Source of the DNA: Candidatus Nanohalarchaeota archaeon
GTDB taxonomy: Archaea; EX4484-52
Length of the DNA stretch: 51,584 nt
Assembly (NCBI GenBank): GCA_003660905.1
Contig: QMVB01000001.1
Location: 1 to 51,584, forward strand
Direction: 5' to 3'
In this document: positions 160 through 39,699 of the stretch, one piece after another
How positions within the stretch are numbered: the stretch's first letter is position 1
How the letters are laid out: each line of letters starts with the position of its first letter
Program-made: the position numbers and the translations under genes
The notes under the pieces: model-generated
Databases searched by the model: none
Told to the model about the DNA's origin: nothing
What the model saw: the letters and a program-made list of their open reading frames with translations, nothing else

Positions 160-180
160 AAATATATTTATCTCTAAATA

Positions 181-225: not shown

Positions 226-305
226 TTGCGTGTCATTCAACAAAGTTGAATGTGCAGAAAATCCGAAGGATATTCCCGCATTCTTGCATTACCGCATCAT
301 GCGGA

Positions 306-1844: not shown

Positions 1845-1902
1845 GAAACTATTTGTGCTAGATTATTTTAAAATTATATAAAATTTTGTTTACTTAAATT
1901 CT

Positions 1903-2771
1903 ATGGACAATGCAACAGCGGGACAATTTTTGGATTAATTGCAATGCTCGGCTATGGTCTGTCCAATAGTCTGACAAAAATTCCTGTAAACAAAATAGGA
2001 AGCCTAAAAACAGTTTTCTTTAGAAATGTGTTCGCCTCATTCTTTTTATTCATGGCTCTTTTATTTTTCCTGCCCGAATCTATTTTCTCAATTAGTTATA
2101 TTCTAATTGCGCTTATTCTTTCATTGATTGGCTATGTCTCGATAATCGCGTATTAAAAAGCTTTAGGCATTGGAAAAATAGGAATTGTATCTCCTGTTGC
2201 AAATTCTTCAATCATATTTACCGTCCTTTTTTCAATAATTTTTTTTAAAGAAGCGCTTTCGATTATGCAGGCATTTTCCATTCTGCTGATGATAGCAGGC
2301 ATTGTCCTTATTTCGATAAATTTCAGGGATTTAAAAAAGCCTCATATCTTTCAATTGTCAAGCGGAGTTCCTTATGCTTTGATTACCTGTCTTTTATGGG
2401 GGTTAATGTATTCTTTGATTAAAATTCCTGTAATGGTCATCGGACCGATATTGACCTCTTTCGTTATTGAAACAGGACTGTTATTGTACAGTGGTGTTCA
2501 TTTAAATGTTCGCAAGATTTCCTTTAGCATCCCGGATTCCAATACACTGAAATATATTTTCTTTCTTGCTCTTTTTGGCGCAATAGCCACTTTATCTTTT
2601 AATCTTGGCATAAAATTATATAATGTAAGCATTGTTGCGGCATTGACATTTTCAAGCCCGCTCATAGTTGCCCTGTACGGGAAATTTATATATAAAGAAA
2701 AGCTTACATTCCAGCAATGGTTTGCGATTTTGTTAATCTTGTGCGGAATTGTTTGCATATCTTATTTTTGA
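1903..2771 (+). pseudogene. EamA/DMT-family transporter interrupted by an in-frame TAA (plus probable 5' frameshift)
   Basis: ORFs 1944-2156 and 2265-2771 share one frame and are separated only by TAA at 2154-2156. Reading through gives AY*KALGIGKIGIVSPVANSSIIFTVLFSIIFFKEALS, a typical end of the first EamA repeat, for ~275 aa in total. The ATG at 1903 is 1 nt out of frame with the first TM helix (TIFGLIAMLGYGL). Confidence 0.6.
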
Positions 2772-2813
2772 TTAAAAGTATCATGTTTATATATTTTTTA
2801 TTATATTAATATA

Positions 2814-4052
2814 ATGAATTATATGAATCGAAAAATTATCATAATTGGATTGATTATAGTCGCTCTCTTTTTGTCTGGGTGTGTTATTGAACCTAAACCA
2901 ACAGCAGATGATGGAGAAGTAACCCAAGAAGGAATCAATGCAGTTATAGATGCCAATAATCAATTTGCTTTTGACCTTTATTCCGAATATAAATCAGAAG
3001 AAGGCAATATATTTTTTTCTCCTTACAGTATTTCAACAGCATTAGCAATGACTTATGAAGGAGCGAAAGGTCAAACAGCAAAAGAAATGCAATCAGTGTT
3101 TCATTTCCCGCAAGACGACAATGAAAGAAGATCTGCTTTTGCAGGGATATATAATGAAATAAACAAAAAAGATAAAGGGTATGAACTATCTACAGCAAAT
3201 GCATTGTGGGCTCAAAAAGATTTTGCATTTTTGGAGGAGTATATTGAACCAATAGAGCAATATTACAGAGGAAAAATTACTAATCTTGATTTTGTAACAC
3301 GAACAGAGGAATCAAGAAAAACCATCAATGATTGGGTTGAAAAGCAGACAAATGATAAAATCAAGGATTTAATTCCGCCCGGCAGTCTAAATTCAATGAC
3401 AAGGCTGGTTCTTACCAACGCAATCTATTTTAAGGGAGATTGGGTCTACCAGTTTGATAAAAAAAACACAAGAGAAGATGATTTTAAGATAACTGAAAAT
3501 AATATTGTTAAAGTTCCGATGATGCATTTAGACAATGATGATGCAAAATTCAATTATGCCCAAACTGAGGATTTTCAAATTCTCGAAATGCCTTATAAAG
3601 GCGAAGAGCTATCAATGCTTATTCTTCTTCCAAAAGACAATATAAAAAGCATAGAATCCTCGCTTACATCCGAAAAATTATCTGAGTGGAAAAATATGCT
3701 TAAGAAAGAAGAAGTAATCATATATATGCCTAAATTCACATTTAAAACCAAATATTTTATGTCTGATGCATTGGTGGATATGGGGATGCCAACTGCTTTT
3801 TCAGGCGGTGCAGATTTCTCGGGAATGACAGGAAGTAAGGATTTGTTTATTAGCTTTGTAATCCACCAGGCTTTTGTTGATGTAAACGAGGAAGGCACAG
3901 AAGCAGCAGCAGCAACTGCGGCAGGCATGCAGTTCACAGCTGTTATGCCAACCAACATTTTCCGTGCCGACCATCCATTTATCTTTATAATACAGGAAAA
4001 AGAAACAGGAAATATCTTATTCTTGGGGAGAGTTGTTGATCCATCCAAATAA
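2814..4052 (+). CDS. Serpin (serine protease inhibitor) with lipobox-like leader
   Basis: 412 aa. Contains FSPYSISTALAMTYEGAKGQT, the hinge and reactive-centre loop EEGTEAAAATAAGMQFTAV, then FRADHPFIFII. The N-terminal hydrophobic leader ends in LSGC. Confidence 0.9.
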   Translation: MNYMNRKIIIIGLIIVALFLSGCVIEPKPTADDGEVTQEGINAVIDANNQFAFDLYSEYKSEEGNIFFSPYSISTALAMTYEGAKGQTAKEMQSVFHFPQDDNERRSAFAGIYNEINKKDKGYELSTANALWAQKDFAFLEEYIEPIEQYYRGKITNLDFVTRTEESRKTINDWVEKQTNDKIKDLIPPGSLNSMTRLVLTNAIYFKGDWVYQFDKKNTREDDFKITENNIVKVPMMHLDNDDAKFNYAQTEDFQILEMPYKGEELSMLILLPKDNIKSIESSLTSEKLSEWKNMLKKEEVIIYMPKFTFKTKYFMSDALVDMGMPTAFSGGADFSGMTGSKDLFISFVIHQAFVDVNEEGTEAAAATAAGMQFTAVMPTNIFRADHPFIFIIQEKETGNILFLGRVVDPSK

Positions 4053-4114
4053 AGCTACTTCTTTTGTAATTATATTAATAGATGAGAGAATCTTGCTTAA
4101 TTATTTAAAACTTA

Positions 4115-4402
4115 ATGCTAAAAATCTTTATGGCAGATGAGTTGATGGGAGGAATAACTGAACCGGCAACATCGCTGAAAAACAAGACCGGGTCCTGGAG
4201 ATCACAAAAACCTGTCTGGGATAAAGAAAAATGCAAACATTGTATGATTTGCGTGAATTTTTGCCCAGATATGGCAATCGTTGCCAAAAAAAAAGACGGA
4301 AAGATCCAAAGGGAAGAAACAAACATGGATTACTGCAAAGGATGCGGGATATGCGCAAAGGAATGCCCTTTTGATGCAATAAAAATGGTTGAGGAAATAT
4401 AG
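4115..4402 (+). CDS. 2x[4Fe-4S] ferredoxin, 2-oxoacid:ferredoxin oxidoreductase delta-subunit-like
   Basis: 95 aa. Two cluster motifs, CKHCMICVNFCP and CKGCGICAKECP, follow a GSWRSQKP segment as in PorD. Confidence 0.7.
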   Translation: MLKIFMADELMGGITEPATSLKNKTGSWRSQKPVWDKEKCKHCMICVNFCPDMAIVAKKKDGKIQREETNMDYCKGCGICAKECPFDAIKMVEEI

Positions 4403-4416
4403 AATTGTGATTAATT

Positions 4417-4677
4417 ATGAAAAAGAAAGTAAAACTTGCAGGTAAATTCGGAGCAAGATATGGGAGAGGCGTCAAAAAAAAGATAATTATGATAGAGCAG
4501 TCTGCTCATGCTGCCTACCCTTGTCCAAAATGCAACAGGAACGCAGTCAGAAGAGTTGCAGCCGGAATATGGCAGTGCGGGAAATGCAATGCAAAAATAG
4601 CCGGCGGAGCATATTCTCTTACGACGAGTTCGACAGAGATGATGGAAAAAATATTTGCAAGGAAAAAAGAGCAATAA
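4417..4677 (+). CDS. rpl37ae: Ribosomal protein eL43 (L37Ae)
   Basis: 86 aa. Has GARYG near the N-terminus and the zinc ribbon CPKC...CGKC. Confidence 0.9.
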   Translation: MKKKVKLAGKFGARYGRGVKKKIIMIEQSAHAAYPCPKCNRNAVRRVAAGIWQCGKCNAKIAGGAYSLTTSSTEMMEKIFARKKEQ

Positions 4678-4686
4678 TTTGTTATT

Positions 4687-5163
4687 ATGACAAGTGAGAA
4701 AAAAAAGCATAAATCAGAAAATCCTGTTGAAGCGTTGAAAAAGCAGAATAAGGAATTGAATGAAAAGCATCTTCGCCTTCGCGCTGAATTTGACAACTAC
4801 AGGAAGAGAACAGAGAAGGAAATGATTGAGCGGTGCGCTTATGCAAACGAAAAATTTATATCAAAGCTGCTCGGCGTCATTGATGATTTTGAGCTTGCGC
4901 TTTTGTCATGCCCAAAAGAATTCAGGAAAAATGCATTTTACAGCGGGATAAAAATGATTTTGAAAAATTTATTTGATATCCTGGAAAAAGAGGGAGTAAC
5001 TCCAATAAGCGTTACGGGAGATGTGTTCAATCCTGTCCATCACGAGGCGATAGGGACTATTGAAAGCAAAGACCATAAAAAAGACACAATTCTGGAAATA
5101 CAAAAAGGATATTTTTACAAGGATAAGGTACTAAGACCAGCTAAAGTGAAAATTGTCAAATAA
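4687..5163 (+). CDS. grpE: GrpE nucleotide-exchange factor
   Basis: 158 aa. Has the signature helix LRLRAEFDNYRKRTEKE and the C-terminal GYFYKDKVLRPAKV beta domain. Confidence 0.85.
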   Translation: MTSEKKKHKSENPVEALKKQNKELNEKHLRLRAEFDNYRKRTEKEMIERCAYANEKFISKLLGVIDDFELALLSCPKEFRKNAFYSGIKMILKNLFDILEKEGVTPISVTGDVFNPVHHEAIGTIESKDHKKDTILEIQKGYFYKDKVLRPAKVKIVK

Positions 5164-5358
5164 TTATTTTAGGGTTTGATTGCGGGTTAAATTAAAGTTA
5201 AATGATTATTATATAACTCACCTTACGCAAGACCTCCAATTTCATGAACTATTTTGAGTTCCGGTAATTCATCAAAAGCTGCTTTTGCAGCATTCAAATA
5301 TATCTTCGCATTCAGAGCAAAATGATTCAAATTTGTTTTTATTCCTTTTTGAGTAAAT

Positions 5359-5407
5359 ATCCCGCAATTTGCTGCGGAGCGAGTGAAGCGAACAGCGGGA
5401 GATTCAT
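5359..5407 (+). repeat. Hairpin repeat family, copy 2
   Basis: ATCCCGCAATTTGCTGCGGAGCGAGTGAAGCGAACAGCGGGAGATTCAT. The arms are TCCCGC..GCTG / CAGCGGGA. The loop contains GTGAAG. Confidence 0.55.
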
Positions 5408-5443
5408 AATAACCGCTCTATTTAATAATATTGTATTTTAAAA

Positions 5444-5536
5444 TATAGCATAACACATAAATAACAGAAAAGAATTTTGCTTTTTTTGGAGCAAATTTCT
5501 TTTTGCCGAAACTAAACTACTTGCGTAATTTTGCAG
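5444..5536. repeat. 93-bp repeat, copy B
   Basis: See copy A. It lies in the convergent spacer between grpE and the ABC ATPase gene. Confidence 0.85.
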
Positions 5537-5675
5537 TTCAGTTGCGATGCAAAAAAAAATACAAGCGATATTGATAGTATTTATGTGTTCTGCTAGTATA
5601 TTTGACTGCAATTAGCAGGCAAATATATTCGAAGACGCAATTATCGCAACATGTAACGCAAATTGCGTTTAAGAT

Positions 5676-5719
5676 TATATCACGCCACAATACTTACATT
5701 ACTTTTGTGCCGTGATATA
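5676..5719. other. 15-bp imperfect hairpin in a gene-free spacer
   Basis: TATATCACGCCACAA - 14-nt loop - TTGTGCCGTGATATA, with one mismatch. The 6-bp palindrome AACGCAAATTGCGTT lies at 5655-5669. Confidence 0.5.
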
Positions 5720-5832
5720 GTTTCTACATTCCAAAAATATTCTGCCTAACATTCTCTCCCACAACATCCTCAAACAAAAAACACTACAATCTATATTAAT
5801 CACACTTAACACAAATCCTAAAAAATGTCAAT

Positions 5833-6519
5833 TCACAGCGCATCAACATTCATTCCGTCCTTTATGTAAATCACGCGTTCTGCATAATTTGCAAGCAATT
5901 TATCATGCGTCACCAGAACAATTGTTTTCCCGTTTTTATGCAAATTATCCAAAATTTCCATTATCTCTTTTCCTCTCTTTGAGTCAAGATTGCCTGTGGG
6001 CTCATCTGCAACGATAATGGTGGGTTTATTCGCAAGGGAGCGGGCAACGGCAACCCTTTGCTTTTCTCCGCCACTAATCTCTGTTGGGTAATGCTTCAGC
6101 CTGTGGCTTAGACCCATATCATCAAGAATTTCTTTTGCCCTTTTTTTTCGCTTAGGCAACGAAACTTCGTAAAACATCATCGGGAGCATTACATTTTCAA
6201 GGACGGTAAGCGTGTTCATAAGATTGAACTGCTGGAATACAAATCCGATTTTCTTTCCCCTGATTGAAGAGAGCTGACTCCGGGTAAATTTGTTTATGTC
6301 TTTTCCGTCAAGGTAAATGCGCCCTCTTGAAGGGCGGTCAAGACATCCTATTAAATGAACGCATGTTGATTTCCCGCTTCCTGACGGACCCATCACAGCA
6401 ACAAATTCTCCTTTCCCTATATTTATGTTCAGACCTCTTAATGCCTCTACCTTTACTTTTCCAAGAGAGTATATTTTCCAGACATTTTCCAGCTTTATAA
6501 GAGGGTTCTCTTTTTCCAT
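5833..6519 (-). CDS. ABC transporter ATP-binding protein, FtsE/LolD/MacB family
   Basis: 228 aa. Walker [10 protein letters not shown], signature [12 protein letters not shown], Walker B IIVADEPT, and FVFQQFNL typical of this subfamily. Confidence 0.9.
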
Positions 6520-6521
6520 AT

Positions 6522-7397
6522 TTAAGTATCATTCTTGTTTTTCTTTATTATGTTCAGCATCTTCATGAGCGGGTTCTTTTCGTAAAAAATATCTGCGGAA
6601 TCCCTTATGTGCTTGCACAGGGTGCGCATAATGGTTTCCTCGCCATAGCATGAAAAAAAATTCCTGAAATGAGGAACCTGAAGCACATCATAGATTATCA
6701 GGGAATTGCCGTCAATATAGGCATTTATCTCTATCAATTCTATATTAAGCAGTCTCCTTATCTTATAGACAATATTTTTTTGCTCATTTAAAAGGTCATA
6801 TTTTTCACCATTCTGCTCTGCAAAAAAGGACGTGCCTATGGATAAAATAGTTACCTTTTCCTTGTTTTTTAATTCCTGGACAATTAAAGGCTGATCCAGG
6901 GTTTCAAGAGCATCTATTATTGTATTTATGCTTTCACGGTTGTTTATAATAATTTCCTGACCGATTTTTGGTCTTATGACTACAGGAAGCTTCATTTCCT
7001 CTGCATTTAGTCTTGCCTTAAGCACCTGACCATTTGTTGCATAATATGTCTTCAATATAGGAACCTCCGATGTATTTAGCGTAAAAAAAAGCAGAAACAA
7101 ATCATTGCACAATGTTATGGCATCGCTCGGGAAGCAGACATATTTTTTGTTCATCTCAAAAACAGACGTCAGGCTTGTTGTAAAATCAATTGCTTTTTTT
7201 CTTGGCAGAGCAAACAAAGCATCAAAGCCGAGCAGTTCCTTGCTCTTTGAAAAGACATTGCTCTGTCCGTTCAGCAAATCTATGTTTATGTTGCTCCACG
7301 AAGTATAGTATACTTTTTCAAAATAAGATTTGAAAGCGTCTAAAAAAGACACCATTGTGCTTGTCGGTTTTTCTCTCCCTATTATCAGGAGTTTCAT
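6522..7397 (-). CDS. Hypothetical protein, divergent RimK-like ATP-grasp fold (weak)
   Basis: 291 aa. The layout resembles an ATP-grasp protein (LPVVIRPK..., QPLIVQEL..., ...EINAYIDGNSLIIYDVLQVPHF), but the glycine-rich ATP loop is not recognisable. Spaced 1 nt from sepF and 2 nt from the ABC gene. Confidence 0.35.
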   Translation of the reverse strand: MKLLIIGREKPTSTMVSFLDAFKSYFEKVYYTSWSNINIDLLNGQSNVFSKSKELLGFDALFALPRKKAIDFTTSLTSVFEMNKKYVCFPSDAITLCNDLFLLFFTLNTSEVPILKTYYATNGQVLKARLNAEEMKLPVVIRPKIGQEIIINNRESINTIIDALETLDQPLIVQELKNKEKVTILSIGTSFFAEQNGEKYDLLNEQKNIVYKIRRLLNIELIEINAYIDGNSLIIYDVLQVPHFRNFFSCYGEETIMRTLCKHIRDSADIFYEKNPLMKMLNIIKKNKNDT

Positions 7398-7398
7398 A

Positions 7399-7740
7399 TT
7401 ATTTTGTTAATTCAACATCTGGCGGAAGCAACAATACTATATTTTCGTCAATCCCAATAATATCTCCCCCAGTTGCATAAACAGTCTTTTTCAATTTGTC
7501 TATAACCCTCTGGAGTTCATCAACATCTTTTGATTTCAATTCCTTTATTTTAAGCACGATGATATTGCCCATCCTTATCTGGGACTGCAATTTTGCACTA
7601 TCATCGTAGCTCCTAAGTTCTTCTACCGTGAGATCTACCTTAGACTCACTATCTTTATAGACAGCCTCTTCAACTTCTATATATTCATCAATATCTTCTG
7701 CTGCATCCTTTTTTTTCTTACCTAAAAGACTTCCAATCAT
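7399..7740 (-). CDS. sepF: Cell-division protein SepF
   Basis: Starting at the internal Met gives MIGSLLGKKKK (amphipathic membrane-targeting helix), DEYIEVE, GNIIVLKIKEL and GGDIIGIDENIVLLLPPDVEL, matching archaeal SepF architecture. A GAGGGG Shine-Dalgarno lies just upstream of this ATG, so the 148-aa track ORF is probably over-extended. Confidence 0.75.
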   Translation of the reverse strand: MIGSLLGKKKKDAAEDIDEYIEVEEAVYKDSESKVDLTVEELRSYDDSAKLQSQIRMGNIIVLKIKELKSKDVDELQRVIDKLKKTVYATGGDIIGIDENIVLLLPPDVELTK

Positions 7741-7914
7741 ATTATCCCCTCTTTTTGTATTATCCTTTTCTGTCGTAAATAAGGCATTTTTGTCGTTGCG
7801 AACTTTATTTACGGCATAAAAATCCTGCATATAATTCAAATCCACAGGATTTTTTCCAGATATGTAATTGTAAATGTTGTATATGTTTTTAAATATTTCC
7901 TTTATTTGTTATTT

Positions 7915-8073
7915 ATGAAATGCATTAGTTGCGGAAAAAACATAGGCAGTACGACTCATTATTCTACCTTCTTATGTCCTGCCTGTGGAGAGACTCAAAT
8001 CACAAGATGCAATCAGTGCAAGAAAAGGGCTGTCCGGTACAAATGCAGCAAATGCGGTTTTATTGGACCATAA
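7915..8073 (+). CDS. Small zinc-ribbon protein with four CxxC motifs (DUF1610/HVO_2753-like)
   Basis: 52-aa ORF absent from the track: MKCISCGKNIGSTTHYSTFLCPACGETQITRCNQCKKRAVRYKCSKCGFIGP, with TAA at 8071-8073. Confidence 0.65.
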   Translation: MKCISCGKNIGSTTHYSTFLCPACGETQITRCNQCKKRAVRYKCSKCGFIGP

Positions 8074-8083
8074 TCATGCAAAT

Positions 8084-8476
8084 ATGGGAGATTGTATATT
8101 CTGTAAAGTTATTAAAAAGGAAATTCCTTCCTATATTATTTATGAAGATGAAAATTTCATCTCTTTCTTAGACATTAATCCAAAGGCATTCGGGCACTGC
8201 CTTGTTGTTCCAAAAGAGCATTACGACGATATTTACAGCTACAGGGAAAAAGCAGGCGCCAGCGTAATTGACGCAATAAGAACAGTATGCCTAATGATTA
8301 AAGAAAACATGAACTGCGCAGGACTGAATGTTGTCCAGAACAATGGCAGGATTGCAGGACAGCTGATAGAGCATATTCATTTTCACATAATCCCGCGCTT
8401 TGAAAAAGAAATAGGCGTAAACAAAAGAGATTTCAAGGCAGTTTTAAGGATGATAAAGGGAGAAAGTAAAGCGTAA
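8084..8476 (+). CDS. HIT-family (histidine triad) nucleotide hydrolase
   Basis: MGDCIFCKVIKKEIP start typical of the HIT family, and the HIHFHIIPR histidine triad. The track ORF beginning at 7985 overlaps the zinc-ribbon gene and is probably over-extended. Confidence 0.85.
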   Translation: MGDCIFCKVIKKEIPSYIIYEDENFISFLDINPKAFGHCLVVPKEHYDDIYSYREKAGASVIDAIRTVCLMIKENMNCAGLNVVQNNGRIAGQLIEHIHFHIIPRFEKEIGVNKRDFKAVLRMIKGESKA

Positions 8477-8477
8477 G

Positions 8478-8561
8478 CGTTGAGAGGGGGATTTGAACCC
8501 CCGAGGGCCGAAGCCGACCAGCTTTCCAGGCTGGCGCACTACCAAGCTATGCGATCTCAAC
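8478..8561 (-). tRNA. tRNA-Ser (anticodon GGA)
   Basis: The reverse complement folds as a cloverleaf. Acceptor GTTGAGA/TCTCAAC, anticodon stem CCAGC/GCTGG with loop CTGGAAA, long variable arm, T arm GGGGG-TTCAAAT-CCCCC. Confidence 0.85.
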
Positions 8562-8582
8562 ATTCCTGTGTAATTAAAATAG

Positions 8583-9776
8583 ATGATATTTTTTAAAATA
8601 ATGCTCTTTGTAAAAGATATGCCCGACCTAATCCGCGAAGAAGACACGACCATAAAAGTCCCGGACAGCCAAGACCTTACAAGAAAAGCAGAGGTTTTCT
8701 ACAACCCGGAAATGAAATTCAACAGGGATTTGTCCTGCCTTGTTTTGGCAGAGGATTTCAAATCAAGAATCAAAAAAAGGGATTCCTACACTGTGTGCGA
8801 TTCAATGGCGGCAAGCGGCATAAGAGCAATAAGGTATTTTAAGGAACTTGAGAAAATCGAGAGGAAATTCAAAAAGAAAATATTTGCAATATGGCTTAAT
8901 GACATAAAAAAAGATGCCCTTGATGCGGCAAAAAAAAACCTGAAATTAAACAGGATAGCGGGAAAAAAGATTGTCCTGAGCAATGAAAATGCAAAAACCC
9001 TTTTTTCAGGCAATAGATTCGACTTTACAGACATTGACCCGTTCGGGAGCAGTGTTTATTATCTCGACTCTTTTTTTGGCAACTCCATGCACAATGGTCT
9101 TCTTGCAGCGACATACACAGATACAGCCCCTCTTTGCGGGACATATCCAAATACGTGCCTTATCCGCTATTTTGCAAAACCTGCGCGCATAGACAACATG
9201 CACGAGATTGGCTTGAGGATATTGATTGCAAAGACAAATATCATCGCCGCAATGCATGAAAAGACGTATTCTCCTCTTGTCTCGTTTTCAAGAAGGCATT
9301 ATTTCCGGCTCTTTGGAAGAGCAAAAAAATCATCCAAGGGAACAATAAAGGAGCATCTAAATAATATCGGCTACATGCTCTACTGCAAAAAATGCATGGA
9401 AAGAAAATTTGTTGGTCTTGAGTTGTTCTCTCAAAAAGATAAATGCTCGTGCGGGGAGAATTATGATTATGCAGGTCCTTTATGGACTGGAAATTTAAAT
9501 GATTCTGATTTTTGCGACAGGCTCATTCCATGCGCAAATGATGAGAAAATGAAGGAGTTTATAGAAATGCTTGCAGAAGAGAGCAGGAACGGAGGCATCT
9601 GCTATTCTATCCATGAACTGGCAAAAAAAACAAAGAAAGATGTTTTAAAGACAGGCAAACTGATTTCTGTTCTTCAGAAGCAGGGGTTCAATGCTTCTTG
9701 CTGCCATTTTGGAGGGCATTTTGTGAAGACTGATAAAATGCTGAATGGGAAGGAATATGGGAAAATTGCGCATTAA
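8583..9776 (+). CDS. trm1: tRNA (guanine26-N2)-dimethyltransferase Trm1
   Basis: Contains FYNPEMKFNRDLS, CDSMAASGIRAIRY, DIDPFGS and a C-terminal Cys cluster. The true start is probably the Met at 8619 (MPDLIRE). Confidence 0.85.
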   Translation: MIFFKIMLFVKDMPDLIREEDTTIKVPDSQDLTRKAEVFYNPEMKFNRDLSCLVLAEDFKSRIKKRDSYTVCDSMAASGIRAIRYFKELEKIERKFKKKIFAIWLNDIKKDALDAAKKNLKLNRIAGKKIVLSNENAKTLFSGNRFDFTDIDPFGSSVYYLDSFFGNSMHNGLLAATYTDTAPLCGTYPNTCLIRYFAKPARIDNMHEIGLRILIAKTNIIAAMHEKTYSPLVSFSRRHYFRLFGRAKKSSKGTIKEHLNNIGYMLYCKKCMERKFVGLELFSQKDKCSCGENYDYAGPLWTGNLNDSDFCDRLIPCANDEKMKEFIEMLAEESRNGGICYSIHELAKKTKKDVLKTGKLISVLQKQGFNASCCHFGGHFVKTDKMLNGKEYGKIAH

Positions 9777-9783
9777 TAATAAG

Positions 9784-11316
9784 CTATATCCTATCCAGCA
9801 ACCGATAAGTATTATCCCTTATCGCCCTCCTGTGAAGAGCCTCCATATTCTCATCAATGCCGTAAAAGGACGCAGGAAGCTCCTTTGGATGCATGTTGAT
9901 ATCAAGAAATTCTCTCATTTTCTTCAATGAAAAAGAAGTATCTGGATGATTGCCATCTAAGGAATATGACAGATAGCCAAAATCCATGCCTTTTTGCTTC
10001 AGGGAATACAGGATAGAATAAATAGAATACATCCTGTAGCTCATCTGCTTTACGCCTGCATTATTTATTACATCCACAACAACTTCCTTTATGTATTTTC
10101 CACTGCCAGAGGGAAGTTGCGCTATGCCTTTTTCAACATCCACGAGATTCAGTATCAGGTTGTATAAATCAAGGCAAATTCCGCTGTATTGACCATTGTC
10201 AAGGTTTTTGGAAAGTATTGTGTAATCCTCTACAGTGTTGAGCCGCATATTTTCACTGCTCCATTTGCTCGGCGGCTTTGCAGTCGCAAACAAGACAGGG
10301 AGGTTATGCCTTGAAATAAAATCATAGGCGCTTATTTTGCCTATAGTCCTGTCAAAGCTGTCAAAGCAGACAGACTCGTCTGTTGTCCTGAAATGCCCTG
10401 TAATATATGTGCAGGCAACGGCAGAGACGATTTTTTTGATTATGTTAGAAATGCTTTTGTCTTCATAATAAGAATTCCGGTATATTTTTTCACCTGCGTT
10501 TATTTTTTCAATCATAAGCTCGGGGTTGATGCCGGAGAGGTGAAAATCATTCCATACAGGATTTTTTGTATTGTATAAATATTGCCCCACAACTGCATAG
10601 GCATCTTTTTCCTGCGCTTTCGCCCCGTTGATTATCCAGTGGTCAAAAAGCGATAAAACATTATACTGCTCAAAGGCGTTCTTTAATTTCTCATTTTTTT
10701 CCGCCATTTGCTTTAATTCACCAAACAATGGCATCCTGCCGCTAAATATTATTTTTCGCGCCTCCTGCTCAAAAAACAGAATAATCGCTGTTGTACCAGA
10801 GCTGTGTATATTCAGGCTTTCAAAAATTAGGCGGATATGCTTTGCGCAAAACCAGTCAACAAGATTTCCGTTTTTTATTAAAGTTCCCAGGTTCTGTCCC
10901 TGCGGACCAACCTGCGGAGTAATATTTTTTTGGCTCAGATGCTCAAATGCGAAGCATATAGGCGGCACTATTTTAGTAGCAGGGAAAAATGAAATAAATC
11001 GCGCATTGAATACAGTTTTGTTGTAGAACAGTATTGAAATGAATTTTTTATGCGCTTCTCTCCACTCGCCCAGATTTGAAGAAGAAAGGTCTGCAATCCC
11101 CGTGGTGCGGCATCCGAGATTTACTTTTTCAATGTCAATCAAATGACGAACTGCTTTTTCCAGATGCGGCTCAAGGTTGCCTGACAATTCCTCCTTTTCG
11201 ATTATTACGAATTCAGAACCTGCTTTTAATGCCTCAGACAGAATTATAAACTGGCTCTTATCTTTTTCAGATACAAGAGACGGCTTGACAATGGAAGAAA
11301 TAATATAATGGCTCAT
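9784..11316 (-). CDS. Hypothetical soluble protein (510 aa), no family recognised
   Basis: Long uninterrupted ORF with compact spacing to its neighbours. I could find no TM segments and no nucleotide-binding or catalytic motif. Confidence 0.6.
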   Translation of the reverse strand: MSHYIISSIVKPSLVSEKDKSQFIILSEALKAGSEFVIIEKEELSGNLEPHLEKAVRHLIDIEKVNLGCRTTGIADLSSSNLGEWREAHKKFISILFYNKTVFNARFISFFPATKIVPPICFAFEHLSQKNITPQVGPQGQNLGTLIKNGNLVDWFCAKHIRLIFESLNIHSSGTTAIILFFEQEARKIIFSGRMPLFGELKQMAEKNEKLKNAFEQYNVLSLFDHWIINGAKAQEKDAYAVVGQYLYNTKNPVWNDFHLSGINPELMIEKINAGEKIYRNSYYEDKSISNIIKKIVSAVACTYITGHFRTTDESVCFDSFDRTIGKISAYDFISRHNLPVLFATAKPPSKWSSENMRLNTVEDYTILSKNLDNGQYSGICLDLYNLILNLVDVEKGIAQLPSGSGKYIKEVVVDVINNAGVKQMSYRMYSIYSILYSLKQKGMDFGYLSYSLDGNHPDTSFSLKKMREFLDINMHPKELPASFYGIDENMEALHRRAIRDNTYRLLDRI

Positions 11317-14571: not shown

Positions 14572-16017
14572 ATGAAAAATATCAATTCACTAATAATAGT
14601 CTTATTAATCACATTCAGTTGTCTTGCAAGCATAAGTTATGCTTTGCCGTCAATTGAAATCACAGAAACTAATATTGAAGAAAATATATTCGTAGGCGAC
14701 GTACTCGATGTTGCCATTGACTTTGCAATTGGCTCAGACAGGTCGGAACTGGTTCGCCTTTCACTGTATATAGACAACAAAATAAAAGACAGCTACACTT
14801 CCTTTTATCCTGACGGGGACTTTACATTTACATTTCATTATGATACAGATTATATCTCAAGAGGAGAGCATACTCTTAAAATAAAGGCAGAAGTCATCAG
14901 GGATGATGACGTGAAAGATTCAGATTCCCAAAGCCAGACATTTGAATTAAAGCAGGTAACCTCAGACATTTATCATAATGTTGTGATAAGCCAGATAAAA
15001 TATCCGCTAAAAGCATCAATGAATTCCAACATCCCTATAACCCTGACAATCCAAAACAACGGTGTTGTTGATGAATCAAGCATGCAGACCAAAATAAAAA
15101 TAAATGCAAAGACATACAAATCAGATTATTTTTACCTGAAAAAAGGAGACAAAAAAATTCAGACAATGTATGTGAAAACGCCCATGGAGAAGGGTGAATT
15201 TGAAATTGAAACTGAAACATCCAATCCTTATGTAATGGACAAAAAAACCATAGACTTGGTTGTGGAAGACATTTCTCTCCTGTTGAAAACAGACAGCACG
15301 AATATAAGCCAGGGAAAGTACATCTTTGTTTATGGCTATGTAAGGGAAGAAACTCCAAGGCAGAATTATGTTTATATATACAAAGACAATGTGTATTTTA
15401 CAAAAATAATTCCTGGCGGGGACGGTTTTTTTTCATACTTCCTAAAATTTGAAGAAGAAGGAGAGCATATAATATCTGCAAAAATATACGGCATGAAAAA
15501 AAGCATTAAGATAAATGTATATGCTCCTGCCCATGAGCAGGAAATTATTGAAAACAAAACAACTCTGATTCCTGGCCGCGCAGAAAATAAAACAGGGAAA
15601 GAGAACGCAACAGCTCCTGTCAGCGTAGATATAAGCAATGAAACCCAAATAGGCGAAGAAGAGCAGATTGGAGAAGGAAATGGAATCCCTGACAGGGCAG
15701 AAACCATAAGTGGATATTTCGTAAAAATAAGCGAAACAAACATCCTGCCATTGATTGTATTGTTTGCGATTATATTGCTTTTGAGCTATATTGCATTGGG
15801 AAACCATCGCATAAAGGCAATTCCGTGGAATAGTTTTAAACTCTCCAAACAGCGCGAAGAAGGAGAACCGGGACCAGGGAAAAGCCTGTTTTCCGGCATC
15901 GAAGGAAGAAAAGCCGCTGAAGGACACGAGCCAGCAAAGCCTTTAGTCCAAAAAGAAGAACCCGCAGACATTTTCACTTCATCTTATTGGGTGAGTTACA
16001 GGAATATGGTCAAATAG
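14572..16017 (+). CDS. Secreted/anchored surface protein with Ig/CARDB-like repeats
   Basis: 481 aa. Has a Sec-type leader MKNINSLIIVLLITFSCLASISYA, beta-rich repeats, a C-terminal TM helix (ILPLIVLFAIILLLSYIAL) and a charged tail. GAGGGGG lies upstream of the ATG. Confidence 0.6.
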   Translation: MKNINSLIIVLLITFSCLASISYALPSIEITETNIEENIFVGDVLDVAIDFAIGSDRSELVRLSLYIDNKIKDSYTSFYPDGDFTFTFHYDTDYISRGEHTLKIKAEVIRDDDVKDSDSQSQTFELKQVTSDIYHNVVISQIKYPLKASMNSNIPITLTIQNNGVVDESSMQTKIKINAKTYKSDYFYLKKGDKKIQTMYVKTPMEKGEFEIETETSNPYVMDKKTIDLVVEDISLLLKTDSTNISQGKYIFVYGYVREETPRQNYVYIYKDNVYFTKIIPGGDGFFSYFLKFEEEGEHIISAKIYGMKKSIKINVYAPAHEQEIIENKTTLIPGRAENKTGKENATAPVSVDISNETQIGEEEQIGEGNGIPDRAETISGYFVKISETNILPLIVLFAIILLLSYIALGNHRIKAIPWNSFKLSKQREEGEPGPGKSLFSGIEGRKAAEGHEPAKPLVQKEEPADIFTSSYWVSYRNMVK

Positions 16018-17417: not shown

Positions 17418-20400
17418 TTATTCATTTTCAACTTTTTCTAATTCACGCAAAAGGGCATCTACATTCTCATCAAGCTTCCTGATTTTGTGCATTATTGCAT
17501 CTTTTAATGCAGACATATCTTCAGGACTGCCTACAGCCAAATTCTCTTTAAACCTTCCATATTCGTCCAGCATATCTCCTTCAATCCCAAATTCTTTCTC
17601 AAATTTAGCAAATCTGCTTTTCTTTTTCCACCAGTGTTTTTTTTCCTTAGCCCTTTTCCGGTATTGACGGTATATATCTTTAACGAGCGAGATATCTCCT
17701 GTTTTCTTTAGTCTTTTAATTGACTCTTCCCTTGTTTCCTCATTAGGGTCAAAAAGAGAGCCAAAAACAAGATGATTTACATCTTTTTTAAAAAGAGCGC
17801 GCTCTTTCCTGTCTTTTTCTATAACTCCTATTCGTGAAATTAATCCTTCAGCATTCCATCGGCTTTTCCTGTCTTTGAGCAGTTCATGCGCTCTGTTGTA
17901 AATAAATGTTTTAATTTCCTTCGAACTTCTTGAATATATATCTTCAAGAAGATTTACAGCGCCGTTTCCGGCAGCTATATCTGAAAACAACTCAAGCAGT
18001 TTTTCTGCAATATGCTGTTTTAATTCTTCTGAACTTTCGTTGTATAAGTTATTGAGTGAAGTTTCAGCATTCCATTGAACATTCCTGTCTTTGAGCAGTT
18101 CAAGCAATTCTTCAATGATATGCTTTTTATCATTTTCTGTTCCTTCCCTGTATTTTTGCTCAATTTTTTCTTCGGCATCCCACTGGGCGTCTCTGTCTTT
18201 AAATAATTCAATTAAATGGTTGATGGTTTCTTTTCCTGTATAAGGAGTGCCTTTTATTTTGTGCTCTTTTTTCTCTTTATTTTGTAAAAACATATCATAT
18301 ATTCCATAAATCTCCATTGCCTTTCTCTCAAATGTGTTCGGAGCAATGTCATTCTCTGCCAGCCAGTTAGCATCATGAATTATTTCATCGCGATTTCTGT
18401 ATTCTCCCAGTGCAATTTCCTTTATTCTATCGCCGGTAGTTCCTGCATTGCCGTACCCTACAGCTCGCAGGTTCATACAGTATTTGTTTAGTATCCACTG
18501 GTATTGATCTCCCTCTTTTTTAATTTCATCACTTATTTTTATTACACTTTTAATATCAGAGATGTCTATCCTGTCCGGGCTGTCAAGTATCTTTTTGACA
18601 CGATTATTTAATTCTTTGAGTTTTTTGTCAATAGCAAAAAGAGGCATGCATTCTTCATTAGACAGACCATGAAAGGGAATCTTGCTGTATTTTTTCATCA
18701 TCCAAAAAAGAGATTTCGCTATTTTGCCTTCTGTCTTTTCTTTTTCCAGTACAGACTCTTTTAACTTTGGCTCTTCCATAAGATCAAAAGAAGTTCTGAC
18801 ATTAGTTAATTTGGCTCCGAAACCGCCGAAAAAATAATGGCTTAATTCATCAATCTTTTGCTCAAGAAATTTTTTGCGATTGTCAGGCATTCTTTCAGCT
18901 CTTTTTTCAGCTGTTTCCATATGCTTTTCATGTATTTTTACATAAATGTCGTGATTTTCAATTTTATTCAACATTCTCTCAGCCATTCTGCGGCGATTAT
19001 CGTCCGCAGCATATCGGGCATTTGAGACAAGATGATTGATTGCCTCTTTTTCATACCCTGCTTCTTTCAATGAGCCATAAGCATTTTGCTGTGTTTTTTC
19101 ATTCCCGCTTCTCAAAGCTGATAGGGCGGCACTCCTATCTAATGGGTTTTTGATGTTGATTGTTTGAGCCTCTAATGTTCGATGGGTTTTTGCCTTATTT
19201 TTGTCGATATGGTCTCTGTTGTCGCCCTTGAATTTTTCCCACATTTCAGGGTTTTTCCTGATTTCCTTAAGATGCTCTTTTGCATAATCTCTTCTGTCTT
19301 TATGTTTAGAAAATAGGTTTCCTGTGATGCTCTTTAGAAAGGATTTTTTTTGATCTTCTGTTCCGTGCCCTAATAAAGATTCTCTTGCATTATTTCTTAC
19401 CTCTTTGTCTTCGTGTCTTAGGCCAGATAAAATATTGCCGATAAATGAGTGCTTTTTTATGCCTTCTATCGGCTTGTTTTTCAAAAATCCATGCGTGCGT
19501 TCTTTTTCTTCACTTAAAACTTCCCTGTATAATTCTCTTCCTTTTTCATCTCTTTTTGCCAGTTTTTTTAATTCTTCTTTTGCTTTATCTCTTGCAGCTT
19601 CATCGATATAGCCGTCCTCGGGAGACATTGCAGTTCTCATCATGCGCTCTGCCTGTGCTTTGTCGGCTATTGTTGGCGGCATTTCACTGGTTGTTGTGTA
19701 TGGGGTTTGACCGCCTGATTTAGGCGGTTTTTTGTTATTAAAATTTTTACTCAAAACACTATATGCTTCGCTAATCTCCTTGAATTTATCTTCGTTTGCA
19801 TGTTCAGATGTCGATCTATCAGGATGATATTTCATCGCCAGTTTCCTGTACGCTTTTTTTATTTCAGTTTCAGTGGCGTCTTTAGAAACACCAAGGGTGT
19901 CGTAATGATTCACTCCCTGATGAACAATTCTGTCTTTTCCTTTTTTCGCCTTTATTTTTTCTTCCCATATTGCATAATATTTTTCTCTTTTATCTTTGTA
20001 AGGAAGAGCCCTTAATATTGCTCCTATTACGTTAGCGGCCTCCTGTCGAACAGAATCTTCTTCTGCGTATACGGCTAAATCAATAAGATGAAGAACCACA
20101 TCTCTAAAAAACGGATGATTTTCAGGGAGGTTTTCAGGCAATTTTTCAGATATGCCCAAAAGTATATTTATATTTTTATCGCTAGATTTTTCATATGGCT
20201 TATAAATGGCTAGTTTAGCAATGTTAGAAATTCCATTAATTATATGCTTGTTTTGAAGTATTTCTACTGGAATTTTTTCAGGTATTGCTACGGTAAGATT
20301 TAGGATAGCAGATAATTCCATTTGATATCCTTCATTTAATTTTGCAGGCATTTGCTTCAATTCTTGCAGGATAGAGTTCATCACTGGTGTTCCTATATTA

Positions 20401-22343
20401 TGAAGCCCTTTATAAGCAGTTTTATAAATAACATCCTTTTCTGTCCTTAGAACTCTGAACAAATGCACAATATCTTTTTCTTCAAAATCTGTTTCTCCTC
20501 TTCTTAATCTTTCTACAATTTTAGGATAATCTTTTTTTGTTTCTTTTTCCCCAAATATTTTTTCAAACAAGGTTGATTTGCCTGTTTGTCCTTTCCCTGC
20601 AAAAGGAATATTATCAATTCCGCCGGGTTCTTTTCCAATCTCATCAATTCCTGCTTTTGCAAAAGCACTTTCTCCCATTTTTCCATAAGGTTTTTGAGTA
20701 TCTGCATGAAGGGGTTGTTCTGGTGGAGGAGAAGTTTGTCCGGTTGTTGTTCCTGTTCTATGAACTCCCTGACGTCCGGTCATGCGACTTCTGTTAATTT
20801 CTCTTTCCAGTTCCTCCAAAAGCCTAACCAAAGGACCTGGAGGTCTCTGGGCTTTTATTTCGCTTATGGCTCTGTTAAAAATGCTTCCATCAACCTGCAT
20901 TAGTAATTCTTTTGCTTTGTCCTTTGTGCTTATGCTTCCAGACCATGCAGCTGCCTTTATTATTCGCTCTATTGTTGCTATATCTTCAAAATTAAGATTC
21001 TTGTTTTGCATCTCTTCAAATGTGAATGCAGAAAGACCGCCGGAATATGGCTGTTTTTCTTTTTCAAATTGTTTTAATAATTCATTATAAGCAACATTTA
21101 TTTTCTTCATCCTTTCTTCTTCTTCAGGATTTCTGTCAGGATGATGTTCCATTGCCAATTTCCTGTATGCTTTTTTCATTTCTTTTTCAGTGGCGTTTGG
21201 AAATATACCAAGGGTTTTGTAATGGGCTTTGAGTTCTTGCGGGGGTGAAGGAGGAGTAGGATTCAGTATCTCCCAATATAAAGCTTGAATTAAAGAAAGT
21301 ATTTCATTTGTTGTTTTTGTTTGATAAAATAAAATTAGTTCAGATAATTTTCTGTAAAATTCCAGACAGGCATAAACCCCTTGCTCTTTTTTTATTTTAT
21401 TTCCAAGCATTATGCTTTTTTTGATTATTTCTTTTGTTCCTTTAATTCCAACATCCTTCTCTAATAGGTTATTTCGACAAGTACGAAGTATATTGTTTAT
21501 TGCAACATAAGTGTTTACATATTCCTCTTCTTCAAGGCCATCAACATCTGCACTTTTTATTGCCTGAACAATAATTTCGTTAAATTCAAATAAATATTGA
21601 GGGAACTCTTTTAGGCTGTCAAATATATGAATAATATTTGTAACAATATAGCCACTTCTTTGGATAGGAGACATTTTTTCTGCTTCTTCAATTACTTTTT
21701 CGTAAATATCTATAGCAGAGTTGTTTTGGTCTATTACTAGCCCTATTACTGAAACAACAAATCCCTCTTTAAGATTATAACTTTCCAATTTTTCCAGAAT
21801 ATATTTTTTTCTTCTCTCAAATGTTTTTTTCCCAGAATGCTTTTTCTTTTCTTTTCCTCCTCCCAATTCAAGCCTTGCGCTATTATCCGATAAAAATTCT
21901 TCTTGATTTCCCTTTATAGTCCTGCCAATATTTCCTGCTTTTCTTCCTAAATTCTCAAGTCCTGTTTTTGCCTTGGCAAAAACCCCTTTCGGCTTTGACG
22001 GCATTTCTCTTAAATTGTCGAATTTGTCAAAACCTGAGTCTCCCTGTGATTTCCCCCCTAATTCGAACCTGCTTTTGATTCCAAAATCAGGAATTACCCT
22101 TCCTGCTGTTCTTTTTGCCCTGTCAAAAACTCCTTTCGGCTCTATTATTCTATCAACAGCCCCGCAAAACTTTGCAATCTCTTTTTTCCCTAAATCATAA
22201 TCTCCATGCTCTGCTTTTTCCAGTCTTGCCTTTATGTTCTTTAGAAGTTTTATGTCTTTTCTCTCAAGTTCTTTTCCCCTTAAGTTTTCCAATTCAAGTT
22301 CCAGCCTTTTCAATTCAGAAATTTCTTCTTCTATATTTACCAT
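17418..22343 (-). CDS. Giant (1641 aa) protein with two J-domains and HEAT-like repeats
   Basis: J-domain 1 is [31 protein letters not shown], with HPD at nt 21135-21143. J-domain 2 is [31 protein letters not shown], with HPD at nt 19818-19826. The N-terminus is coiled-coil with a duplicated PKGVF..AK...ELGG segment. The C-terminus has repeated [15 protein letters not shown]-type HEAT-like units. Confidence 0.8.
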
Positions 22344-37419: not shown

Positions 37420-39699
37420 TTATATATTTATTTTGTTTCTCCCGACTGCCAAAGACAAAAACATCAGTCCTATTGACAAAAAGATTGTAGGGACTTCCGG
37501 GATTGCCAAAGGCAGATAATCTGTGTTGCTTCCCCCGCTGATATTATGCGGATAATCCACGAACCCATCTCCGTTACTGTCCGGTGTGTTGAAATCCGAG
37601 AAATAATTTCCTCCTATGTATGGACCACCGATTATATTTGTTTCGGTCTGGTTTGTAATATTCCAGTCATTGTTTCCATTGTCCCAAGCATTGTTTGTGT
37701 TGTCAAAATAATTGTTGTATATTAAATTTGGTACTTGCGCACCTGACTGGTATAAATAAATACCATATTCTAAATTGTTGACTATTGTCGAATTTTTTAT
37801 TGTATTTACATTAGCCTGAGATAAATATATTCCATAATTATTAGAAAGAGCAGTTATATTCAGAATTTTATTTAATCCAGAACGACGAAGATACACTCCT
37901 CTGTCCCAGTCTGTGACAATGCAGTTTTTTATCAGGGATGTTGTATTTGTTGACGAACCCCTTGATATACGGACTGCATAACTGGGCTCTAAAGAAATCC
38001 CGGCTATCTTATGGTTCCGGCAGTCCAAAGTTATGTTGTTTGCAGTTACATCCATGCATATTTCAGCACTTGAATCAAGAATATCTGCTGTCAAATAATA
38101 TGCCGCTCCTGTTTTATTCAATTCCCTACAGCCAGATATATAAAATACAGTTATATCAACATTTAGACTTCTTGTTTCAGAACTATTTGCAACACCTATC
38201 CTATTTTCCCAGCACTCTACATTCCATGAATAAGTTCCATCAGATAATTCATGACTCATTATTGTTGACGTGGCATTTATGGCATTTGTGGAATTTTCAA
38301 CAGTCCCGTTTATTACAAGATTGCATGTGGAATTTTCTGAAATATGGTTGTACACCGTAAAATTAAATATTGTCCTGTTGCTGTTTTCTGTGTGGTCGTT
38401 TGACGGGCTGTTTAAAACAATAATGGGATTTAGATTAGGGGGATTTACTGCATCTACATAATTAAAATAATCTGTTACATTGCATTCGTTGAAACCAATC
38501 TTAAAATATCCATCTCCATTCCACGAGGAACCCCAGCTGTTCTTTACAATCCAGTAGCTTGTTGTGTCGTTTCCTGTGTCGTTGTATCCTGTTAAAACAA
38601 CAGCATGATTCAAATCGCCCTCTTCATTGCAACGATAAATATCACCATCCCAATCATCACCATTGTCCATATCTATCGCGATTGGAAGAGGACCATAATA
38701 ACTTATCCAGTTTTTGAGTTCATCGTTTGAAAAATCAGAGTAGTAAACAGTATAATTACTGCCGGACAAATCCCATAATCTTGCGTTCCAGTCAGAACAC
38801 TTTCCATTGCAATTGCTGTTTGACTTATTATATGGAAAACAAAATTCATCGGAAATTCCATCCTCTTTTATATAATCAAGAGCCACAATTTGATTCCCGC
38901 CATCACAATCTCCACAGTAAGCGCAACAGTCAGAAACGAGATACTGTTCAGATAAATCCGGGTTTAATTGCGAATTGTTCTGGTCGATATTGTATTTTGC
39001 CTCTACTGCCCCGACAGCAGAAAAAGCCCAGCAACTTCCGCAACTTGCCTGATCCTTTACCGGTGTCATCCAGTTTTCATTATTGTAATTTCTCCAGTCA
39101 TAATAAGAATGGATGTTGCCATTGCCTACCACAAGAGAAGAAGCGCCAAAAGATTTGTCTTTGACTTTCTTTGCATTTGCTAAATCCGGTTTAAACGCAT
39201 AGCTTATTTTTTCATCAAGACCCATCATCTCTATCATAGGGACCATATTATTTTTATTTAAGAAACCAGAGCTTATCTTCGTAAAATCAACTTTGTTTTT
39301 TTTAGGTATGCAAATAGCATACTCTGAAGAATAAGAATTCCCTGTTTTTATTGTTTTGATATCGTATCCGTGCTTTGCGCAATAAGAGAATTCTTGCCCT
39401 GTCTTGCCATTGAGAAAATCCCATGCATTGAATTTTGCATTGTCTGAAATGACGCAAACTCCATCCTGACTGCCATCACTGCCAGTTGTTACTTCGTAAT
39501 TATAACCCATTTCTGTGCAATAAGCAGCAGAAGGATTGGATATTCCAAATGAAATTCCTGTCAAAATTATTATCATAAAACTTACTGCCAACCCGAACCA
39601 TAAATTTTTCAGGTGTCCTGAAGTATCACGTAAAAAAGAAAAAACTTTTTTTGTTTTTTCTGCATTGAATCCTGTATTTTTTACTTTTCCATTTTTCAT
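37420..39699 (-). CDS. Secreted multidomain papain-like (C1) cysteine protease
   Basis: 759 aa. Domain order: N-terminal TM/leader; DUF333-like module (YCTEMGYNYE...FSYCAKHGYD); C1 catalytic domain (QASCGSCWAFSAVGAVEAKY, LNHAVVLTGY, VKNSWGSSWNGDGYF); Ig-like region; parallel beta-helix repeats (NNYGIYLSQANVNTIKNSTIVNNLEYGIYLYQSG); C-terminal PEVPTIFLSIGLMFLSLAVGRNK tail. Confidence 0.85.
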   Translation of the reverse strand: MKNGKVKNTGFNAEKTKKVFSFLRDTSGHLKNLWFGLAVSFMIIILTGISFGISNPSAAYCTEMGYNYEVTTGSDGSQDGVCVISDNAKFNAWDFLNGKTGQEFSYCAKHGYDIKTIKTGNSYSSEYAICIPKKNKVDFTKISSGFLNKNNMVPMIEMMGLDEKISYAFKPDLANAKKVKDKSFGASSLVVGNGNIHSYYDWRNYNNENWMTPVKDQASCGSCWAFSAVGAVEAKYNIDQNNSQLNPDLSEQYLVSDCCAYCGDCDGGNQIVALDYIKEDGISDEFCFPYNKSNSNCNGKCSDWNARLWDLSGSNYTVYYSDFSNDELKNWISYYGPLPIAIDMDNGDDWDGDIYRCNEEGDLNHAVVLTGYNDTGNDTTSYWIVKNSWGSSWNGDGYFKIGFNECNVTDYFNYVDAVNPPNLNPIIVLNSPSNDHTENSNRTIFNFTVYNHISENSTCNLVINGTVENSTNAINATSTIMSHELSDGTYSWNVECWENRIGVANSSETRSLNVDITVFYISGCRELNKTGAAYYLTADILDSSAEICMDVTANNITLDCRNHKIAGISLEPSYAVRISRGSSTNTTSLIKNCIVTDWDRGVYLRRSGLNKILNITALSNNYGIYLSQANVNTIKNSTIVNNLEYGIYLYQSGAQVPNLIYNNYFDNTNNAWDNGNNDWNITNQTETNIIGGPYIGGNYFSDFNTPDSNGDGFVDYPHNISGGSNTDYLPLAIPEVPTIFLSIGLMFLSLAVGRNKINI

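Follow-up and report, generated by a model that had tools for sequence, protein, structure and literature searches.

A 1641-residue archaeal protein with two J-domains set in an all-helical modular scaffold, a candidate class C J-domain protein

Examining a 51,584-nt stretch of DNA (QMVB01000001.1, hereafter the window), which is one entire contig of an incomplete metagenome-assembled genome (MAG) filed under Candidatus Nanohalarchaeota archaeon (GCA_003660905.1), we found that the open reading frame (ORF) at 17418-22343 on the minus strand is a real gene for a giant protein of 1641 amino acids (aa) carrying two genuine J-domains. The J-domains are canonical, the remainder of the protein is modular and helical throughout with no nucleoside triphosphatase (NTPase) or enzyme fold, and its modules recur in relatives that have no J-domain. 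We think it somewhat probable that the product is a cytoplasmic, all-alpha, lineage-specific scaffold of a DPANN archaeon, working as a J-domain protein (JDP) of class C (type III). The features that carry this reading are as follows.

17418-22343, minus strand: whole gene; 1641 aa; predicted soluble, all-alpha, modular protein, putatively a class C JDP
21060-21227, minus strand: J-domain 1 (J1); aa 373-428; HPD at aa 401-403; PF00226 at 63.9 bits, E=1.4e-17
19743-19910, minus strand: J-domain 2 (J2); aa 812-867; HPD at aa 840-842; PF00226 at 85.2 bits, E=3.2e-24

A preliminary description of the window had reported one uninterrupted ORF of 1641 aa, and the frame indeed runs through all its codons to a single terminal stop, an event with a chance of about P = 1e-50 at the base composition of the window. 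Public gene calls disagree on its extent: the JGI/IMG call (P0016) covers the full 1641 aa, whereas the NCBI call (RLG15160.1, DRN66_00100; P0002) starts at an internal Met and covers only aa 675-1641 (967 aa). Look-ups of the exact product returned no record for either the 1641-aa or the 967-aa form. The stretch of about 2 kb that falls outside the NCBI annotation (20322-22343, minus strand) is clearly coding and holds J1 together with a region homologous to the Aenigmarchaeota protein P0001. Because this unannotated 5' part encodes a J-domain and a region 43% identical to P0001, the long gene model is right. An assembly chimera, or the erroneous merger of two genes, would agree with the truncated NCBI annotation, with the lack of any relative spanning either J-domain junction, and with the internal repetitiveness of a gene known from an assembled contig alone. 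Such an artefact is nevertheless highly improbable: the 674 codons without NCBI annotation would stay open by chance with P of about 3e-21 at the same base composition, the J-domain that they encode is significant, GC content is even along the gene, and JGI calls it at full length. Moreover, with identities of only 45-55%, the internal repeats are too dissimilar by far for a collapse or mis-join in assembly to be expected.

Both J-domains are significant when scanned separately against PF00226, for which the Pfam cutoff is 27.8 bits, and the HPD tripeptides lie exactly where they had been placed, starting at aa 401 (nt 21135-21143) and aa 840 (nt 19818-19826). The flanking helices, previously described as nearly identical, share the string KKAYRKLAM in the two copies. 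PDB sequence matches comprise 65 J-domain chains, all of them on the J1 and J2 segments and none elsewhere in the protein, with the human DNAJA1 J-domain (2lo1) as the best match of J1. J2 is about 59% identical to the J-domain of E. coli DnaJ (1bqz; 5nro_B, a chain of the DnaJ-DnaK complex) and shares 57-59% identity with J-domains from operon-encoded DnaJs (loci L010-L022). In E. coli DnaJ, the residues R22, K26, R27, K48, and K51, together with H33/P34/D35, position the J-domain on DnaK (PMC8215388). Their equivalents are K390, R394, K395, K413, and N416 in J1 and K829, R833, K834, K855, and S858 in J2, so four of the five basic contact positions are kept in each copy; HPD is kept in both, and J2 also retains F854. 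Judged by sequence, then, the helix II/III contacts are conserved, and the preliminary description was right to call both J-domains canonical.

A class A or B DnaJ was considered and rejected: TIGR02349 (DnaJ_bact) reaches 125.9 bits versus an equivalog cutoff of 377.2, its match is restricted to profile positions 2-61, and Pfam finds neither DnaJ_C nor DnaJ_CXXCXGXG in the 1641-aa protein. The likeness of J2 to canonical class A DnaJ contrasts with everything around it, since the protein is 1641 rather than about 370 aa long, is encoded outside an operon, and has no G/F region, zinc finger, or C-terminal beta-sandwich. DNAJC13/RME-8, auxilin/GAK, DNAJC7 and DNAJC3 (tetratricopeptide repeats [TPR] plus J), and Zuotin/DNAJC2 are class C JDPs with solenoid or helical scaffolds. 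Compared with these named proteins, the 1641-aa protein is alike in placing an HPD-bearing J-domain inside a large non-DnaJ protein, in having no zinc-finger or DnaJ_C domain, and in the remaining alpha-helical repeats, which are presumed to bind clients; it differs in being archaeal, in having two J-domains instead of one, and in having no sequence or fold relationship to them outside the J-domain. Two J-domains in one polypeptide are also known from Leishmania J14, which has 326 aa (PMC9141911) and, unlike the archaeal giant, is small, eukaryotic, and devoid of a scaffold. The largest JDP survey left out sequences with multiple J-domains on purpose (PMC10410713), and the 1641-aa protein therefore has no described class to join.

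Searches beyond the J-domains were consistently negative for known activities. Outside J1 and J2, no enzyme domain appears among Pfam, NCBIfam, PADLOC, or PDB matches; no PADLOC family matches the 1641-aa protein at E up to 0.01, and a PHROGs scan returns the J-domains only. Nor does the protein contain a transmembrane segment or signal peptide, its best 19-aa hydropathy window being 1.25. The SPEARE-type giants of Nanohaloarchaeota are membrane-anchored and extracellular, rich in Ig-like domains, and equipped with a VirB4-like ATPase (PMC10266531). A SPEARE-like surface giant was therefore rejected as well: the two share great size and lineage variability among DPANN proteins, but the 1641-aa protein is all-alpha and has no transmembrane segment, signal peptide, or ATPase. 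Among the classes tested, its sequence places it in the J-domain superfamily only, besides the HEAT-type repeats. These repeats and the other parts of the scaffold are arranged from the N to the C terminus as follows.

22149-22343, minus strand: K/E-rich N-terminal helical segment; aa 1-65; 43% charged; putative coiled coil
21834-22148, minus strand: two PKGVF...ELGG modules; aa 66-170; motifs at aa 69/118 and 94/159
21249-21833, minus strand: orphan region before J1; aa 171-365; missing from P0001; sub-threshold Pfam matches only
20775-21050, minus strand: tail 1, a helical module directly after J1; aa 432-523; nearest to the P0001 tail
20424-20774, minus strand: linker with a conserved motif; aa 524-640; low model confidence, with a predicted local distance difference test score (pLDDT) of about 30-50
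19935-20423, minus strand: HEAT-type helical repeats; aa 641-803; helix-turn-helix; pLDDT 70-84
19449-19727, minus strand: tail 2, a paralog of tail 1; aa 873-965; 57% identical to P0010 and 47% to P0017
18927-19439, minus strand: HEAT-like block B; aa 969-1139; 42-58% identity to P0003, P0004, and P0017
18249-18926, minus strand: Module C, a helical domain of about 200 aa (RYFFGGFG...PNSFEKAAM-YG); aa 1140-1365
17814-18221, minus strand: three LLKDRxxxWNAE HEAT-like repeats; aa 1375-1510
17418-17789, minus strand: C-terminal segment, common to P0017 and ending in a K/E-rich helix; aa 1519-1641

J1 and J2 are placed equivalently, each immediately N-terminal to an arm made of a tail followed by HEAT-type repeats. 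In the first arm, tail 1 is modeled as helices at pLDDT 80-88 and helical repeats at aa 690-803 at pLDDT 70-84; the P0001 region homologous to aa 641-803 has a Pfam HEAT match (E=2e-10), and the same residues weakly match HEAT blocks of a giant protein from a related MAG, which is described below. In the second arm, HEAT_2 matches aa 1071-1125 at 34.4 bits versus a Pfam cutoff of 27.7, and the alignments of the LLKDRxxxWNAE repeats score z=13.3 and 6.8 against shuffled sequences, so the C-terminal HEAT-like repeats of the preliminary description hold up. Its duplicated PKGVF..ELGG module fares less well, as the duplication is weak (z=3.1), but one PKGIF copy is conserved in P0001. A search for homologs of aa 60-368 returned none. 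The C-terminal segment is 38% identical to P0017 aa 1023-1093, and its very end is similar to another ending in ...ALLGELNEIRNPE in the comparison with P0017.

The scaffold is best read from its alignments as a mosaic of rare, all-helical modules that are common to J-less relatives. An exhaustive HMMER search that used aa 873-1641 as query found just 14 matches among 1.84 billion representatives, and these, together with P0001, define the modules: tail, HEAT-like blocks, Module C, and a shared C-terminal segment, which the relatives share at 30-58% identity. Scans with alignments of the middle region, using the patterns that we chose, found no relatives in GTDB representative genomes (a set containing neither the source MAG nor the KAQ92 MAG) or in JGI metagenomes. 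All scaffold relatives come from Aenigmarchaeota or Altiarchaeales, and none carries a J-domain. P0001 runs from its PKGIF module straight into its tail, with no J-domain preceding it, and the tails of P0010 and P0017 are likewise not preceded by one. Instead, the same modules are joined to other things: P0017 (1346 aa, complete) consists of two copies of tail, HEAT-like block, and methyltransferase, and P0005 combines Module C with TPR repeats. This arrangement fits a design of a scaffold plus an exchangeable effector. Thus P0001, P0003, P0017, P0005, and the giant of the related MAG resemble the 1641-aa protein in their modules and differ from it in lacking a J-domain, having a methyltransferase, TPR repeats, or nothing recognizable in its stead. 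Alignments that combined aa 365-1140 with the full set of relatives (A4, A5) were dropped, since MAFFT mis-registered the paralogous tails and repeats.

Module C looks like an undescribed domain family. It has eight relatives, including Altiarchaeales proteins and a stand-alone protein of 230 aa, the latter on contigs (L003-L005) with the bacterial-type neighbors DnaE, MiaA/B, GatB, and EF-G. Its AlphaFold2 model is all-helical (pLDDT 83.6, predicted template modeling score 0.81). Module C has no Pfam match and no PDB sequence match by profile search, and Foldseek returned nothing at E below 0.2 in PDB or BFVD, only generic helical-bundle similarity. Reading by eye, we noticed HExxH strings (RHERRH and RHENAH) about 100-150 aa upstream of Module C in P0011 and P0012, which may represent a metallopeptidase-like module fused to it.

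A further family member marks the genomic position of the gene. In a Candidatus Aenigmatarchaeota MAG (locus L006, contig JAGLPV010000012.1), positions 1-9987 on the minus strand hold a reading frame free of stops for at least 3329 codons, which diverges from purB and runs off the fetched locus. The encoded giant (at least 3316 aa) has Pfam matches to HEAT or Arm repeat families exclusively, and neither HPD, Walker A, nor a J-domain was found in its first 3316 aa. It contains the N-terminal ~400 aa of P0017 twice (52-53% identity) and a HEAT block common to P0001 and the 1641-aa protein, and it occupies the syntenic position adjoining purB. This synteny and the shared modules indicate that the locus adjoining purB holds a fast-evolving giant of one module-shuffling family, of which the 1641-aa protein is the only version seen with J-domains. 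A CARDB-domain protein is encoded within one or two genes of the giant both in the P0017 locus (L002) and in the window (14572-16017), which may be residual synteny or coincidence.

The two J-domains have a composite history. An internal comparison aligns aa 374-479 with aa 813-923 at 45% identity over 114 aa (E=7e-20), so that the likeness extends beyond the J-domains into the tails. J1 and J2 are about 55% identical, no closer to each other than J2 is to E. coli DnaJ or to the operon-encoded DnaJs, and the two tails are about 37% identical. Tail 1 is nearer to the tail of P0001, and tail 2 to those of P0010 and P0017, than they are to one another, which means that divergence of the tails preceded the split of these organisms. 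A single recent tandem duplication of J-domain plus tail was accordingly rejected as a full account, since each tail is closer to a J-less tail of another organism. At the codon level, however, the part of the J-domain spanning helix I, helix II, and HPD behaves differently from its surroundings: 17 of its 21 identical residues share the codon versus 10 expected from the codon usage of the giant gene (P of about 6e-4), and no excess of identical codons is seen in the remainder of the J-domain or in the tails. The pattern suggests either intragenic gene conversion over a tract of about 90 nt or a recent common origin of that part, and further suggests that the two copies are being kept alike. 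At the DNA level, the corresponding halves (19811-19910 and 21135-21227, minus strand) are 82% identical.

The preliminary description also pointed to a P-loop-like string between the J-domains. The string is present, GKGQTGKS at aa 583-590 (nt 20574-20597), and does fit GxxxxGK[ST]; sub-threshold matches to MMR_HSR1 and small_GTP (both E=0.026), each over only about 30-40 residues, could be taken to favor a nucleotide-binding switch in this region. Yet in P0001, the only homolog of the linker region, the string reads IPFGGK--TGKSRLFEKLF, so that a two-residue deletion breaks the Walker A spacing; apart from that deletion, the motif (GQ)TGKS-LFEK-F..ETKKD..IVERLR-GE--FEEKDI is conserved, flanks included. 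The region aa 431-811, modeled with AlphaFold on an alignment of two sequences (A2; mean pLDDT 60), contains no beta-strand, and the string falls in the low-confidence linker, between the confident helical tail bundle and the confident helical repeats into which the linker directly leads. No Walker B, DxxG, or NKxD was seen downstream by eye, in keeping with the preliminary description, which saw no other NTPase motifs, and no P-loop protein occurs among the PDB sequence matches. We give a P-loop NTPase next to no credence, and both alignment and model indicate that GKGQTGKS is part of a conserved linear motif in the linker. A docking or pseudo-substrate peptide would be pure speculation.

The gene lies apart from the one component of an Hsp70 system that the window does contain.

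4687-5163, plus strand: solitary grpE; 158 aa; PF01025 over the full length, E=2.8e-46; likely part of a functional partner system, unlinked to the giant gene

It directly follows the gene for eL43/L37ae (4417-4677, E=8e-30) and is followed by a gene-free gap of 670 nt (5164-5832) and then by an ABC ATPase gene on the opposite strand. The gap sits where dnaK stands in canonical operons; it contains no ORF of at least 60 aa, Rfam gives no match there at E up to 1, and tblastn shows no remnant of Hsp70 or of a J-domain. Neither Hsp70 nor a class A/B DnaJ was found among window ORFs of at least 120 aa or by six-frame tblastn of the 51.6-kb window. By comparison, dnaK directly follows grpE in 12 of 15 metagenomic loci with GrpE relatives, usually with dnaJ next, and the closest GrpE locus (51% identity) has a bacterial hrcA-grpE-dnaJ arrangement. 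The canonical grpE-dnaK-dnaJ order is absent from the window. For this contig, therefore, three earlier claims stand: grpE is an orphan behind eL43, no dnaK or dnaJ occurs in the 51 kb, and the giant gene lies outside any dnaK-dnaJ-grpE cluster.

Recruitment of Hsp70 to a large assembly, as the preliminary description suggested, would be the most economical mechanism for the giant. The HEAT-like solenoids and helical bundles (tails and Module C) would hold a client or an assembly, and each J-domain would dock ATP-bound DnaK/Hsp70 through HPD and the basic face of helix II and trigger ATP hydrolysis, so that up to two Hsp70 molecules could be loaded locally on whatever the adjacent arm holds. 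GrpE from the same contig would then reset Hsp70. The partner would presumably be the cell's own DnaK, which the MAG likely encodes, since its GrpE is intact and published surveys report the full DnaK-DnaJ-GrpE (KJE) system from many DPANN and, among Aenigmarchaeota, from mesophilic rather than thermophilic members (PMC8204110, PMC8407114). Two independently significant J-domains with HPD and most basic contacts, the lack of a transmembrane segment or signal peptide, and the intact GrpE all speak for such a class C scaffold. Several points weigh against it. The gene model is read from one assembled contig; the equivalent of K51 is lost in both J copies, and helix IV is divergent in both, as the Pfam match spans only positions 1-56 of 63. 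DnaK was not found in the window, and the gene is monocistronic, convergent with dhs and divergent from purB, with no client, partner, or operon context. Finally, the J-bearing architecture occurs in a single protein, and all relatives found are J-less, including the L006 giant over the part available, so that the J-domains could be a recent, weakly selected acquisition.

The last point leads to the view that a member of a shuffling giant-HEAT family captured J-domains that have no dedicated role, any function residing in the scaffold. The extensive reshuffling of modules between proteins is in line with it, as is the tiny size of the family, with its few matches in a vast sequence set and none in GTDB representatives or JGI metagenomes. 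We regard it as rather unlikely, because HPD and the basic helix II residues persist in both J-domains despite the far-reaching divergence of their tails, because the codon-identity excess in the functional N-terminal half suggests homogenization and not decay, and because both J-domains stand in equivalent positions directly before a tail. A different possibility takes its cue from the missing dnaK: the protein could be delivered to, or act at, a host interface, its J-domains commandeering the host Hsp70 for a symbiont that has no DnaK. DPANN archaea mostly depend on a host, grpE stands apart from the canonical operon, the locus varies strongly from one related MAG to another in the way that effector loci often do, and parasites (Plasmodium) are known to export JDPs that act on host HSP70 (PMC13327048). 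Still, this is very unlikely: the protein has no recognizable secretion signal of any kind, an intact GrpE makes sense only with an endogenous Hsp70, the KJE system is common in mesophilic Aenigmarchaeota and other DPANN, and the lack of dnaK on one contig of an incomplete MAG carries little weight. The same evidence turns the earlier speculation that the genome lacks Hsp70 and uses a host chaperone into a claim for which nothing positive speaks. A broader conjecture builds on the class C scaffold: Aenigmarchaeota-type DPANN would keep a hypervariable giant HEAT-scaffold gene by purB with exchangeable effectors, J-domains in this case and methyltransferases or TPR in others. The two-J version would be a dedicated machine that places a pair of Hsp70 motors on a large assembly, perhaps where symbiont and host meet or even by acting on host Hsp70, and would thus be a prokaryotic counterpart to RME-8, auxilin, and similar eukaryotic scaffold JDPs. 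We find this doubtful as a whole.

The usual picture of archaeal Hsp70 systems is a minimal DnaK-DnaJ-GrpE set obtained from bacteria, and specialized scaffold J-proteins are regarded as mainly a eukaryotic elaboration. If the class C reading is true, a targeted scaffold for recruiting Hsp70 also arose in a DPANN archaeon with a reduced genome, a finding of limited significance for now. Apart from function, the analysis exposes a small, unannotated family of module-shuffling giants, including a new helical domain in Module C, in archaea and on bacterial-type contigs. Moreover, public annotation misses 40% of the giant gene, one J-domain included, and multi-J architectures go uncounted as large JDP surveys discard them.

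The purB of the window shares 78% identity with its counterpart in a Candidatus Aenigmatarchaeota MAG. Because of this identity and because all scaffold relatives belong to Aenigmarchaeota or Altiarchaeales, the source organism is probably Aenigmarchaeota-like, and the Candidatus Nanohaloarchaeota label outdated or wrong. Housekeeping genes of the window include SepF, Trm1, deoxyhypusine synthase, adenylosuccinate lyase and synthetase, and a PAN-type AAA ATPase, and further genes encode ribosomal proteins, PGK, a class I aminoacyl-tRNA synthetase, and T2SSE/F-type pilus components. Also present are a fused PriS-PriL primase of 512 aa (306-1844, minus strand), a full-length serpin with a hydrophobic N terminus (2814-4052, plus strand), and a papain-family (C1) peptidase of 759 aa that carries a fused NosD/beta-helix domain (37420-39699, minus strand); the serpin and the C1 peptidase are secreted-type inhibitor and protease genes in a small-genome archaeon.

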